Under the pieces are notes generated by a model that did no database searches, was not told the DNA's origin, and worked only from the letters and a program-made list of their open reading frames with translations. Positions 49,024 to 56,939 of a stretch of 64,000 nucleotides of DNA are shown one piece after another. This stretch comes from Candidatus Bathyarchaeota archaeon. Lineage in GTDB: Archaea > Thermoproteota > Bathyarchaeia > Bathyarchaeales > Bathycorpusculaceae. How positions within the stretch are numbered: position 1 is the stretch's first letter; every line of letters begins with the position of its first letter. A program made the translations under genes and the position numbers. The DNA lies in assembly GCA_963720565.1 (NCBI GenBank), contig CAVRFW010000002.1, positions 52,011-116,010 on the forward strand, given 5' to 3'.

Positions 49024-49865
49024 TCAGCCTCTTTCCAGAGACTCAGGGCTGTATATGCATTTTGCGGTCACTTTCGGACCTAAAAACATTCTTGAAACGT
49101 TGAAATCCTCTTGAAACCCTGAGGCAAAGAGGTGATTTAGAAGCTCAGTTCTCGTTTCTGGGTACACATATAGAGACTTTAAACCCGGGCAATTTGGCCA
49201 GAAGGTTTCCGAGAAGAAGTTTAGCGTCATCAACACCGTTTGCCTTGCACACTAAAGGACCTATCTCTGCCATTCTATCATACAGTTTCGCCGCTGCAAA
49301 ACCTTTGACTTCTTCGTTGTCAATCAAACCATAGCACAGGTTTTTCCCACTGAAAAATATCGACTCCAAGAGCTTTGCTCGATTTGCCCCGAAACATTTG
49401 CTGTCAAAAGCTATTACGACTGGGAACAAACTTTTCCTGAATTCTTTCTAAAGGATTTTTCGGTGTAGGAGAAACCGGTTCTCCTTGCAACACGGAAAAA
49501 TCCTTGTCAAGTTTGAAACCGAAATGCTCGTAGAAAGCGACCAAATGGGTGTAGGCATAGAGTCCTATCGTACCCACTCCTTTACATTTCAGATAGTCTA
49601 AAGCACAGTTCACCAGAAGCCCTCCGGCATTCTTTCTTCTGCAGTCTTCTCTTACGATCAAGTTACCAAGCCAGCCTACTTTCCCGAAACTGACGGTTGT
49701 GGCAATTCCTACACGCTTCGAACCCTGAAGAAGAAGAAAGCATCCCTCAGGCTCAAGAGCCATCGCTAATTCAAAATCCTCAACCGTCATTTTCCAGTTC
49801 ATCGTATTTGAGAGCTGAACGGCGAAAGGAAAATCTTCAGGCGCCATTCTTTCTACACGAAACAT
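49024..49865 (-). CDS. Two-domain GNAT acetyltransferase, YitH-like (two frameshifts)
   Basis: GWLGNLIV..CRRKNAG; FYEHFGF; FDSKCFGANR; EIGPLVC; SLERG end. Confidence 0.82.
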
Positions 49866-50097: not shown

Positions 50098-51159
50098 CTA
50101 GCTTTTTGCTTTTTCGTAGGCTTGGGCAACACTTTCACTGGTTAAAACACCTACTATCTTGTCAGACGTCTTTCTTTCAGCTACCGGCAGAAGGTCGACG
50201 TGTTCTCGTTTCATTACTTTGTAAGCTTCAAGTATGGATTCATCTTCGAAGACTAGCGGGCGTTTCAAGGGCATCTGTCCAACTGTTAAATTGGTTCTTT
50301 GTTCCGGATTTATTTTCATGATCTCGTCCCATCCTACGATGCCCTGGTAGACGCCGTCTTTTTCAACCAATGCATCGTGATAACGTGCTTTGAACATTAC
50401 TTCCACTGCCTCCGCAAGCGAGGCCTCAGGCCGTACAGCCCCTATTTCTGAGAGCATAACATCTCTTACTCTAACGCCTGCCAGATTAGTTGATACAATG
50501 GTCTGTTCTGCCTCTTCGCTCGCACCTATGTAGATGAAGACGCCTACTAGGATGAGCAAGAAATTGTAGAAAAAGCCGACTATGACCATGCCTATTCCGA
50601 AAATCCTGCCTACATGGGCAGCGTATTTTGTAGCGTCTGAATACTTCATTCTTTCAGCGAGCAAAGCTCGAAAAACTCTGCCGCCATCCATTGGAAAAGC
50701 AGGAATCAGGTTAAATGCTCCCAAAACAAGGTTTAACATTGCCAAATCAAGAATGAGACTTCCAGCTGTAACAAATGAGGGTGCCAAAGTCTCTACGGGT
50801 ACATCCAGAGGAAACAGCCGGCTCAATCCGAAAAGAACACCACCTATTAGAAAACTCACTATCGGACCAGCAAATGCCAATCTCCATTCTATTGCGGGGT
50901 TTTCAGGAACTTCTTCGATTTCTGAAACTCCACCGATCGGGTAGAGAACAATTTTGCGAACTTTGATACCATAGTGTCTCGCGACAACCGAATGTGCCAG
51001 TTCATGAAAAACCACGAAGACGAAGAGGAACAACATCAGTACGAAAAGGTACAGTGCAGGATAATAGAGAACGAAAACCGCAACCATCAGCAGTAGAAAA
51101 GTGACATGCAACTCAACTGGAAATCCCCAAACAGAACCTATTTTGAGAGAATACTTCAT
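50098..51159 (-). CDS. Site-2 (M50) intramembrane metalloprotease with CBS pair
   Basis: HELAH; FNLIPAFPMDGGR; C-terminal CBS domains. Confidence 0.94.
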   Translation of the reverse strand: MKYSLKIGSVWGFPVELHVTFLLLMVAVFVLYYPALYLFVLMLFLFVFVVFHELAHSVVARHYGIKVRKIVLYPIGGVSEIEEVPENPAIEWRLAFAGPIVSFLIGGVLFGLSRLFPLDVPVETLAPSFVTAGSLILDLAMLNLVLGAFNLIPAFPMDGGRVFRALLAERMKYSDATKYAAHVGRIFGIGMVIVGFFYNFLLILVGVFIYIGASEEAEQTIVSTNLAGVRVRDVMLSEIGAVRPEASLAEAVEVMFKARYHDALVEKDGVYQGIVGWDEIMKINPEQRTNLTVGQMPLKRPLVFEDESILEAYKVMKREHVDLLPVAERKTSDKIVGVLTSESVAQAYEKAKS

Positions 51160-51262: not shown

Positions 51263-53250
51263 CCGTGGATAGTGGGCACACACAGGAAAAAGGAATCGCG
51301 CGTTTTGGTTGAATAAAAGATCTTAAATCCTTCTCTATGTTCTTCAAAGAGGATGTAATTCCGTAAAGTGATGGAATAATCACAGTAGGATTTGTGATTC
51401 TGCCTTATTGAGACTGGATCGAAATGCGTGCTTACTTTCCTCTCCGAAGGCAAAAGAGCCATGGGAATCAAGGTGAACAATAGATGACGGTTGTCAGAAT
51501 TTGCCGGATAAACACTGATAGCACTGGTACGATGAGGAAGCTGAGTACGCGAAGTTTTCGGTTAAAGCATTTGGTTTTGAATAACGAGAATCAGCAGAAG
51601 TTGAGGGGAGAACTTGGACGCAGTATCCGAAGTTAGAAAAAATCTGATGGGCTCTAAAACTAGATGACTTTTGCCAAGAGTCTATTGAAGTCAAGTTTTC
51701 CTGCGATGCGCATTTCCAGATTGAGTGCTCTGGAAGACAGTTTCCTATTGACAAATCTAAATGTAAAATTTCTCCTATACTTCTGGCACCAATCAAACTT
51801 GTAAGACGTATAGCCCCCAAAGAAATTAAGTTCTCTGATGTTCTCCTCGATGCATCTCTCCAAAGTCTTCAAAACCAGCAAATTGCTAGGGCTGCAGGAT
51901 GCATAAGCAGGATCTAAACCGCTCATAAGATAATACAGTACTTTTTCATACTCAAAACCATAAAAGACTGCAATTGGCTTATCATTTACCACTAAAAAAC
52001 GCAACCTAAGGCAATTGATCTCTGAAAAAAGTTTGGCTTCATACATGAACATATCACGTTTCCACTTTTTTCCAAATATGCCAGGTTCACCCCTAGAAAT
52101 CCACCTTTTTTCGTGCATGTCAAAAGAGTTCTGCATCATCTCCTCAAGCGACCCTAGTTCGTAATAGTCTTTAAGCACCACTTTTCCATGTTCCCGTTCA
52201 AGTTTTCTCATACACCTTAGCAGATTCTTCCGAAATTTGACGTGCAAACCTCTAAAAAGCTCATCCAACGAGCCAGGAATCGTCAAGTAAGGAGAAACAT
52301 CTCCTTCTCTTACCTCGAGGTCAGGAATAGAGTGAGAACTCTTTCTGAGCAAATCAACTATCGAGAAAGTCTCTGGAACATCGTTAAAATATAGAAAATC
52401 CCAATCTTTTTGGCCATACAGATGGGCTAGGAACATATTCAAGCATTCAGCCTTTCTTTTTGCCAACAAAATTCCGGGCGCTCTAAAGTAGAGTGACTCT
52501 ATCACACTGTAAATTAAATGTCCCTTGAAGAAATGGTTAGATTTCTTGAGTGGAGCAATCCCCAAAATTTCTTCGCCGTCAGTTGCGCATAAGATTTTGA
52601 GTGTGCTTCCTTGTTCCAGGTACTTGACGCCAGGAGCCATTCTCTCCCAACTTAAGAAAAGTGTGTTGTCGCTACTCTTATTGAGAACTTGGTTCCACTT
52701 GTTTCGCATGTCATAGAATTCGTTAACAGAATTAACTTCATTGACTTTGAAGTTTCAAACTCTCCCAGCAACAATTCCGTTTGAACGACATGAGTGTTTT
52801 CTTAGTCTCTACCTATCCCTCTTGCTGTCCTGTGACGACAATAAACCTTTCGCTTGACTGGAACAAGCGAAACCCCGCAGGGCAAGAGTCGATGCGTGCG
52901 CTCAGTGGTTAGCATGCTTCTCTGATTTTTCTGTATAAGTAGCCATATTCTACTCTGGCTCTTCCGTTGAGAATTGGCTCAACTCTAGGTTCGAAATTAA
53001 TTTTCCAAAATTCACAGCTGTTGCAAGGCGAACCGACAGAGAAGATTTTTTATAACACGGCTTTTCTCAAATCCTGAAATTTCGAGCGCGCGCTTGATTC
53101 TTGTTTGTGGTTGCATGTTTCTTATTCTGTTTCTTCTTTTGTATAGGTGTGCGCTGATCTAAAAAGAGGGGTATTTTATCAGAAAAGGGTGAAGGTGGGG
53201 AAACCGTAGGTTTCCAGCATTTAGTCAGTGTGTGTGCCGTGGATAGTGGG
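51263..53250. mobile_element. Non-autonomous element integrated at the tRNA-Pro 3' end
   Basis: Exact 14-bp direct repeat CCGTGGATAGTGGG at 51263-51276 and 53237-53250; inner ends CACACACA / TGTGTGTG are inverted; no recombinase gene inside. Confidence 0.7.
51660..52709 (-). CDS. CelD/BcsL-like GNAT acetyltransferase (cargo; start may be ~52758 with an indel)
   Basis: LFLSWE; LGIAPL; HEKRW; YLMSGLDP...SPSNLL; YKFDW. Confidence 0.82.
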   Translation of the reverse strand: MRNKWNQVLNKSSDNTLFLSWERMAPGVKYLEQGSTLKILCATDGEEILGIAPLKKSNHFFKGHLIYSVIESLYFRAPGILLAKRKAECLNMFLAHLYGQKDWDFLYFNDVPETFSIVDLLRKSSHSIPDLEVREGDVSPYLTIPGSLDELFRGLHVKFRKNLLRCMRKLEREHGKVVLKDYYELGSLEEMMQNSFDMHEKRWISRGEPGIFGKKWKRDMFMYEAKLFSEINCLRLRFLVVNDKPIAVFYGFEYEKVLYYLMSGLDPAYASCSPSNLLVLKTLERCIEENIRELNFFGGYTSYKFDWCQKYRRNFTFRFVNRKLSSRALNLEMRIAGKLDFNRLLAKVI

Positions 53251-53321
53251 GCTGCCCGGATTTGAACCGGGGTCTATAGCGCCCGAGGCTACAAGCCTGG
53301 ACCAAACTAGCCGACAGCCCC
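53247..53321 (-). tRNA. tRNA-Pro(CGG), no intron, CCA not encoded
   Basis: Acceptor GGGGCTG/CAGCCCC; anticodon arm GTAGC-CTCGGGC-GCTAT; GGTTCAAATCC. Confidence 0.97.
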
Positions 53322-55306: not shown

Positions 55307-56939
55307 CTATCCCACATTTAAGTAGAGATCGAGACAAACATCAGCATTATCTTGCTTGTTTGAACTGCTCTCAGCGTTTGTTAGTTTGGGTTTCGTCGTG
55401 GAATGCCTCAGCGGCGATGTGGATTTTGATTTTCTGAGCAGCAGTATTACTACTCCAACTATGGCTGCGACCACGATGATAATGGCAGCGTACAAGACTT
55501 CTGGAGGTATACGCACTTGGAGGGTGGCGTTCTAGTTAAACGGTGTATGTTGCAGTTGATGTATCACTATCCGTCATGCCATCCCTGAAAGCCTTAGCCT
55601 TAATCATCGTCGTAGAGCTCACACCGATGGGACCAGAATACACAGTTGACGAATGACGAAGGCTCAGAACCATCAACAGTGTACCTTATGATCACGTCAG
55701 CAGTAGAGCAGCTTATTACAACATTCTGTGACTGAAGTGTAGGTGCCGCTTCCAGGGAAGAATGTTGGAGTCGCAACCTTTCCTGGAATATTGATGTTGT
55801 ATGTTGCTGTGGCTGTTCACTGTCCGTCATGCCATCTTTGAAAGCCTTAGCCTTAATCATCATCGTAGAATTCGACCTCGATGGGATCTGAATACACGGT
55901 TGACGCATGACGAAGGCTCAGAACCATCAACAGTATACCTTACGATTGCGCCGACAGTTGAACAGCGGATGGTCACATTTTGTGCTGAAGAATAGATGCC
56001 GCCCACAGGACTGAATGTTGGAGTGGCAACCTTGGGAGGAATGTTGATGTTGTACGTTGCCGTGGCAGTATCACTGTCCGTCATACCGGTCTTGAAAGCC
56101 TTAGCCTTAATCACCATTGTAGAACCCACCGCGATGGGACTTGAATACACGGTTGACGATGATGAAGGCTCAGAACCATCAACAGTATACCTTATGGTTG
56201 CGCCGTCAGTAGAGCAGCTAAGAGTCACATTCTGAGGCGAAGAATAGTTGCCACCCGCAGGATTAAACGTTGGGGCAGCAACCGTGGGAACTATCAAAGG
56301 TTAATTGTATCCCAGTATGAGGTGCTTATCTTGCCCGGAACTGTCCCTAATCTGGTAACTAACATATTTCATGCCGCCTCCAGACGTCAAATTCCACTCC
56401 TTGGTCGCTGTAGGAGACTCCCAGAGCTTCAGAGCCCCAGATGTTATTGTTTAGTATACCTTACCTTATCTACGCCAGAGCCTGCGTCTTGATATGTTAG
56501 TGTCAGTGTCACAGTTATTGAGGTTGTAGAGGCTTCACCATCATTGATTACGAATAGAACCAGTAGGCGCAGCAGTATCCAGCACGATGGCATCCCAGAA
56601 ATTGCTTATCAACCCTGCATTATCCCTGATCTGGTAGCTTACGTACTTCGCACCGTCCCCTGATGTCAAATTCCAAGATTTGGTGGCTGTAGGAGTCTCC
56701 CAAGGTTCGGAGCCCCAGTCGTGATTGTTAGTGTACCTTACTGCATCCACGCCAGACCCATTATCAGCATAAGTCAGAGTCAACGTTACGGACTCGGAAG
56801 ACGTGTATGAAGCCCCAGCATTAACAACAATTGAACCTGTAGGCGGGGTTGTATCCTGCGCATATGAAACGTTCAGTAGCAACATTGAGCTCAACAGAGT
56901 TATAGCCAAAACTATAATTGACTTTTCTAGACATTGCAT
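55307..56939 (-). CDS. Surface protein: two ~93-aa Ig-like repeats, three FN3-associated/CHB_HEX_C-like modules and TM anchor (many frameshifts; possibly a pseudogene)
   Basis: Signal peptide VSYA-QD; PTGSIVVNAG repeat; VAxPTFxPxGG...IRYTVDGSEP...IKAKAFKxGMTDS x3; IPPEVLY-TM-RKSK. Confidence 0.8.

Follow-up and report, generated by a model that had tools for sequence, protein, structure and literature searches.

What brought a 1,960-bp segment without a recombinase gene to the 3′ end of a tRNA-Pro gene in this Bathyarchaeia genome? An earlier, sequence-only reading of the locus proposed a Cas1-less, casposon-like element moved in trans and kept a tyrosine-recombinase attachment site as the alternative. 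Our analyses indicate that the insert very probably descends, as a non-autonomous form, from a family-2-type casposon whose lineage has CA-repeat ends and lacks PolB. Coordinates refer to the window, the whole 64,000-nucleotide stretch of DNA that was analysed.

Results

An exact 14-bp duplication and short inverted ends bound the insert

The insert lies between two exact 14-bp direct repeats, a distal copy at 51263-51276 and a tRNA-side copy at 53237-53250 (both minus strand). In agreement with the sequence-only reading, the repeat consists of the last 4 nt of tRNA-Pro(CGG) (53247-53250) and 10 nt of trailer; it occurs only twice in the 2.09-Mb genome, each time at an edge of the element. The tRNA end was mapped by Rfam, which detected only the tRNA on the element and placed this intact gene at 53247-53321 on the minus strand (53246-53321 by ARAGORN); its T-arm and 3′ end would be the target. 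Immediately inside the duplication, terminal inverted repeats (TIRs) made of CA repeats match over 8 bp and diverge from base 9 (distal TIR 51277-51284, plus strand; tRNA-proximal TIR 53229-53236, minus strand). A genome-wide scan for any 14-mer (two mismatches or fewer) flanking CA-repeat ends within 40 kb returned only the 51263-53250 element and no further CA-ended element with a target-site duplication (TSD). The insert was described earlier as carrying AT-richer cargo, and it does have a lower G+C content than the window (41.0% versus 44.4%), but base composition is weak evidence, since G+C is likewise ~40% in the flank at 53.6-55.4 kb.

Several other features of this genome (G000) were recorded. 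The tRNA-Pro(TGG) gene is followed by a CA run (G000:C6:4042-4054) one base short of the spacing described below; no partner end was found in the genome, and the run is possibly a solo end. Two contigs each have a tRNA-Arg(GCG) call, with identical 3′ ends (G000:C1:3964-4042 and C5:65336-65414), possibly an att copy of an integrated element or an assembly overlap. Elsewhere in the window, a GNAT gene upstream of the neighbouring M50 peptidase gene is seemingly split over three overlapping ORFs (49024-49865), and two repeat copies spaced by 254 bp, 81-92% identical, occur with broken frames in a surface-protein-like gene (55544-56297).

A family of CA-ended elements shares the geometry of the insert

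We found 14 further complete elements, 448 to 15,553 bp long, with the same end type and the same partition of the duplication (4 + 10). The 14-bp repeat is exact in 10 of them and has one mismatch in the other 4. Their targets are not restricted to tRNA-Pro: CA-ended elements also occupy the ends of tRNA-Gly, -Trp, -Lys, -Ser, -Met and -Leu, as well as tRNA-arm mimics.

Pattern searches gave a broader view of this family. A metagenome scan for a tRNA-Pro end followed by a CA repeat returned 44 loci, about 15 of which were true tRNA-Pro ends, the CA run mostly beginning 10 nt after the discriminator; two complete small elements (462 and 817 bp) were recovered. The remaining matches were rejected as due to chance or cut by contig ends. 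Across 301 genomes of the host family, the combination of a T-loop motif and a CA repeat behind it was matched 96 times in 64 genomes, with a spacing of 23 nt in 66 cases, 22 nt in 9 and 24 nt in 21. A reversed-pattern control gave ~45 matches over the three spacings, and some of the 64 pattern-bearing genomes match by chance. The modal spacing of 23 nt is the one at which the tRNA-proximal TIR of the insert starts, and it was also found at 9 of the 10 T-loop/CA sites in 20 loci fetched solely because they encode a ~400-aa Cas1. Fetching 40 loci around pattern matches or casposase genes gave complete elements in 9 cases; several loci yielded no partner end despite ~19.7 kb of downstream DNA. 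No match was found in the plasmid collection searched, and viral contigs gave 4 pattern matches and no casposase.

Some members of this family have a more complex organisation. A 15.5-kb CA-ended element (L142 2675-18227, genome G025) has an exact 14-bp duplication and no casposase; its cargo comprises V/A-type ATP synthase subunits I, K, D, B, A, C and E and a mechanosensitive channel. T-arm mimics lie 35-60 bp inside the proximal end at L063 2824-2930, L078 2730-2960, L129 8986-9089 and L070 560-800; behind each come a 14-mer and a further CA end, so that units of 55-65 bp line up in short arrays. At L063 12260-12290, the distal duplication abuts a G-rich end like those of classical family 2 casposons, which suggests that two end types used one target.

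Large relatives carry a solo casposase

The sequence-only reading had envisaged a tRNA-targeting Cas1 or transposase acting in trans. In agreement with this proposal, the larger family members inspected carry a solo Cas1 of ~405 aa and no tyrosine integrase in their Pfam-scanned ORFs. A casposase is encoded by 6 of the 14 complete relatives (L063, L072, L075, L126, L127 and L129) and is absent from 8. L126 (9,014 bp, at tRNA-Pro GGG, with 65-bp TIRs) and L127 (8,338 bp, at tRNA-Lys) come from the host's own family.

The Cas1 proteins of L126 and L062 match the Methanosarcina mazei casposase structure (PDB 6OPM) over their full length, with E values of 1.8e-75 and 4.6e-78, whereas the next PDB matches (2e-22 and 4e-25) trail by more than 50 orders of magnitude; the alignments reach residue ~402 of ~405 and cover the helix-turn-helix (HTH) region at the C terminus. 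The catalytic E, H and D/E motifs are kept. In a quick version of the tree, which included no published casposase references, 20 casposase-like proteins formed one clade apart from 31 other Cas1 proteins (SH-aLRT 100), and the L062, L126 and L127 enzymes formed one subclade within it.

Casposases are scarce in the host family. The insert's own genome (88.8% complete) yielded no Cas1 of any type by Pfam family or casposase profile, and the casposase clade is represented in 3 of the 301 family genomes. One of these, G468, has sites on contigs C37, C45 and C79 that are identical to G160, a genome from another family, and its casposase groups with the enzymes of that family; these contigs may be mis-binned.

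Most of the autonomous relatives also encode three other proteins, OrfA (~127 aa), OrfB (~125 aa) and an ATPase (~290 aa). An HTH gene adjoins cas1 in L064, L067 and L074 and is of the HTH-HEAT type in L067 and L074. The model of OrfB (pLDDT 84) gave primase-polymerase domains as top matches in two fold searches, both weak (African swine fever virus PrimPol, Z 6.1, rmsd 3.0 over 100 aligned residues; LigD polymerase, E 3e-3). Together with conserved DxD, H and DD residues, these fold matches suggest that OrfB may be primase-like. The ATPase profile had only weak Walker-A matches in the PDB, the best being MCM8 (E 0.005). No PolB, HNH or tyrosine integrase domain was detected by Pfam in the ORFs of L063, L075, L126, L127/L185 and L129; for PolB, L072 was judged by ORF size, its largest ORF having 410 aa.

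The link between Cas1 and CA ends is one of co-occurrence across elements, which leaves a distinctly improbable reading in which OrfA, OrfB or the ATPase is the integrase and Cas1 a passenger. The three genes do travel together, in 12 of 21 casposase loci, and HUH/IS200 transposase folds appeared at low rank in the OrfB searches (Z 5.1; E 0.08). Against this reading, none of the 6 complete large elements lacks Cas1, not even L129, where the trio is missing; Cas1 retains the catalytic motifs described above; and the 4 + 10 geometry is that measured for its close homologue from M. mazei. To our knowledge, HUH transposases make no target duplication, which counts against OrfB in this role.

The repeat is a target-site duplication rather than an att core

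We favour a casposase as the integrase, and the repeats themselves bear on the same question. The duplicated 14-mers differ in 15 of 15 elements, the insert included, while their length and the ends of the elements are constant. A repeat of constant length and variable sequence, lying mostly in the non-conserved trailer, is a TSD and not an att core.

A tyrosine-recombinase island that has lost its integrase, with the 14-mer as att core and the joined ends as a palindromic attP, is thus highly improbable. The joined ends of the insert do form a palindrome around 8-10 bp, and the genome has three tyrosine-integrase matches beside other tRNAs (L001, L002 and L003, on G000 C5 and C13, adjoining tRNA-Arg, tRNA-Trp and tRNA-His; two are short fragments). 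However, an att core has to be common to element and target, at odds with the 15 different 14-mers, and it would not lie mostly in a variable trailer. The two extra palindromic bases are not kept in the relatives: an alternative 10-bp duplication with 10-bp TIRs, raised earlier, proved to be a coincidence of this trailer, as the matching bases vary in other elements. No integrase domain was found in the Pfam-scanned ORFs of the complete relatives, a scan that covered relatives other than L072 and L098 and 11 of the 15 ORFs of L142. Collectively, the differing 14-mers and the solo Cas1 of the large relatives support the casposon-type reading and the TSD, and the attP entertained by the sequence-only reading is largely refuted by the former together with the lack of an integrase domain in the relatives scanned.

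An empty site and metagenome contigs support the insertion

The host gene on the distal side encodes an M50 peptidase with CBS domains (50098-51159, minus strand). In the same-genus genome G002, this gene and tRNA-Pro(CGG) are adjacent and the insert is absent. The M50 start codon and the tRNA discriminator are separated there by 108 bases, compared with 113 at our locus after taking away the element and one copy of the repeat, so the empty site that was expected in relatives exists in a congener. G002 is another species: its flank is 76% identical to ours over 123 nt and its trailer differs. Two other same-genus genomes (G001 and G003) are rearranged at the locus and uninformative on the empty site. 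Two genomes of the family (L010 and L021) resemble each other in a ~50-bp trailer behind tRNA-Pro(CGG) that has no CA ends; an element of another type may occupy this site in them.

Contigs from 4 of 4 sequencing runs (4 studies, the best 4 of 24 listed) contained parts of the interior and flanks at ~95-98% identity, which indicates that the element is common to close strains. Among the pieces listed for these runs, all contigs, none bridged either junction and none held a circular junction or an empty-site joint; coming from contigs, this negative does not speak against the existence of such forms. Support from independent DNA, which the sequence-only reading had hoped to find in reads, thus extends to the interior and flanks and stops short of the junctions.

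The rough chance of a 14-bp repeat alone is ~0.1 over all tRNA ends of the genome, and the inverted ends add ~2e-5; it is therefore the combination that beats chance, not the repeat by itself. Although such a repeat near some tRNA end has that chance of ~0.1 and no listed contig bridges a junction, a chance repeat or an assembly artefact is scarcely credible given the inverted ends, the family geometry, an empty site of matching length and the interior and flank sequence in four studies.

Relics tie the insert to autonomous elements

Two short stretches of the insert resemble parts of autonomous elements. Bases 22-46 of the tRNA-proximal end (53191-53215, minus strand) are identical at 24 of 25 positions to the 65-bp TIR of L126 and occur once in the genome. 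Across 73 genomes, the 17-bp core of this motif was matched 12 times, in 8 of them: twice inside a proximal CA end, four times near an oppositely oriented CA end, twice directly after tRNA-Ala without a CA end and four times elsewhere. It marks tRNA/CA-end junctions and not TIRs specifically. The second stretch (51481-51553, plus strand) is a frameshifted 5′ remnant of orfA, the conserved ~127-aa gene of autonomous elements. It is 77% identical to orfA of L062 over 62 nt (E 3.5e-5 against 1.6 Mb of loci) and was detected by nhmmer with an E value of 2e-4 within the element; it was the sole match genome-wide, where the E value was 0.2, and the protein-HMM match in the element was not significant. 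Protein-level HMMs found no orfB, ATPase or regulator in the element. As the L062, L126 and L127 casposases form one subclade, the TIR relic and the orfA relic point to one branch.

The cargo is an acetyltransferase gene that has probably moved horizontally

The only sizeable ORF of the insert (51660-52709, minus strand) is an intact gene for a 349-aa GNAT acetyltransferase (Pfam PF13480, E 4e-24). Its database homologues are labelled CelD/BcsL family, and the CelD-like GNAT described earlier as the sole cargo is thereby confirmed; the name rests on these labels and does not imply a substrate. The closest genome copy, in G531, belongs to another genus (79% identity in amino acids, 87% in nucleotides over 1,128 nt) and sits among ordinary metabolic genes. 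Copies of the adjacent M50 gene within the genus reach only 73-74% identity. This comparison suggests that the GNAT gene has probably moved horizontally. The homologues in G531, G342, G522 and G495 were considered as sister elements and rejected, the regions fetched having no CA ends with a TSD. A cargo-protein scan of genome contigs gave one distant bacterial match. The assignment of the host to Bathyarchaeia agrees with one named homologue of the cargo.

A proposed route of insertion

By analogy with the biochemistry of the M. mazei and Aciduliprofundum boonei enzymes, the casposase would recognise the T-arm and 3′ end of the tRNA. It would join each of the two CA-repeat ends to a different strand, with the joining points 14 bp apart and the first of them 4 nt inside the tRNA gene. 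Gap repair would then create the 14-bp duplication and leave the tRNA intact. Internal deletion could have removed cas1, the primase-like gene and the ATPase from an autonomous element, and the GNAT gene would have been acquired. Because the 25-bp TIR piece and the frameshifted 62-bp orfA remnant were kept, the insert is most likely a deletion derivative with a horizontally acquired GNAT gene.

Whether the element shrank before insertion and moved in trans or decayed in place is about even, the orfA remnant being compatible with either. With its perfect duplication and intact cargo, the insert looks slightly more like the product of a recent, clean event. The cassette has one copy in its genome, and among 75 end-bounded segments, a limited sample, the same Cas1-less cassette was not found at two different sites. 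The insert would be immobile in its present host unless a casposase arrives.

Discussion

The closest known counterparts of the insert are the family 2 casposons of M. mazei. In the parts of the reports available, their TSD comprises the last 4 bp of tRNA-Leu and 10 bp beyond (PMC6977970, PMC4779613), and, as here, the tRNA is left intact. The relatives' Cas1 is a full-length homologue of 6OPM with a C-terminal HTH, and an HTH-HEAT gene beside cas1 (L067, L074), tandem stacks and solo ends are further features common to the M. mazei casposons and the CA-ended relatives. The differences are as clear: the 3′ ends of the M. mazei and A. boonei casposons are C-rich, whereas those of the insert are CA repeats; the M. 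mazei TIR has 31 bp and that of the insert 8 bp; no PolB or HNH was found in the relatives, which mostly have the ~125-aa primase-like gene and the ATPase; and the insert has no Cas1 at all.

The parallel with the A. boonei casposon at tRNA-Pro, drawn by the sequence-only reading, holds for the type of element. AciBoo-C1 of A. boonei and NitNCS1-C1 of Nitrosotalea, both of family 2, use a T-arm-dependent target at the 3′ end of tRNA-Pro, as the insert does. The M. mazei geometry is nonetheless closer: the A. boonei TSD, in the sections of PMC5137440 at hand, which also give the T-arm requirement, has 15 bp of which 5 lie inside tRNA-Pro, compared with 14 and 4 in the insert. In addition, both casposons carry PolB, unlike the CA-ended family, which has a wider range of tRNA targets and uses tRNA-arm mimics.

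Scored on the definition of Krupovic (2014), the insert has TIRs and a TSD and lacks its own Cas1 and PolB. PolB belongs to the original definition in the available text of PMC4046053, PMC9939771 and PMC6452270. The 8-bp TIRs fall under the published range of 25-602 nt, as given in the available part of PMC4046053; those of L126 reach 65 bp. The shortness of the TIR match had been a reservation of the earlier reading. Since the accessible part of PMC6614799 reports that five terminal bases are enough for end recognition in A. boonei, 8 bp is long enough. Within family 2, the casposase with a C-terminal HTH is found in the relatives only, and the core of PolB3-like polymerase, HNH nuclease and two HTH proteins was not found in the complete elements scanned. 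The insert behaves like a family 2 casposon yet fails strict membership, having no Cas1 of its own and belonging to a lineage without PolB.

Lack of PolB is also typical of the proposed family 5 casposases, described as mostly PolB-less and proposed to be non-self-replicating in the available part of Salgado et al. 2022 (PMC9755687). These enzymes have no C-terminal HTH and branch near subtype I-A Cas1, whereas the relatives' Cas1 has the HTH and matches 6OPM best, so that the CA-ended casposases form a different group.

Casposon ends without cas1 have precedents. M. mazei has solo-TIRs, according to the available part of PMC4779613, and the chromosomal casposon of M. mazei mobilised an engineered mini-casposon lacking Cas1 in at least one case, according to that of PMC10359463. 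Unlike these, the insert is natural and has both ends, a perfect TSD and intact cargo. In the mainly open-access literature covered, as far as the accessible texts go, we found no description of casposons in Bathyarchaeia, of CA-repeat casposon ends or of natural two-ended Cas1-less casposons, the natural forms found being solo ends; TIR tables in the supplements of PMC4046053 and PMC4779613 may bear on these points.

A broader and tentative proposal, possible rather than probable, is that the CA-ended elements form a Cas1-driven gene-cassette system, whose rare autonomous member replaces PolB with a minimal primase-polymerase and an ATPase. Such a system might move any DNA bracketed by a 7-9 bp CA repeat into tRNA 3′ ends and into the tRNA-arm mimics carried just inside the elements' own ends. 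If so, polar cargo arrays could be built from units ranging from one small gene to the V/A-ATPase operon of L142, and the 2-kb insert would be one cassette delivered in trans. The system would also be a present-day counterpart of the transition in which a casposon target site gave rise to the CRISPR leader-repeat, except that genes would take the role of spacers.

The insert is thus a casposon derivative found in nature, with both ends and with cargo, and its lineage seemingly lacks PolB and has different end sequences. It permits a direct test of the need of casposons for PolB and of the sufficiency of 8-bp ends for movement in trans. A single-protein integrase that acts on a conserved tRNA arm and has ends of 8 bp and up to 15 kb of natural cargo could serve as an insertion tool. 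In the host family, the T-arm and CA-end pattern is present in 64 of 301 genomes, some of them by chance, against 3 of 301 for the casposase. This excess of pattern over enzyme suggests that these archaea have a route for delivering genes into tRNA ends.
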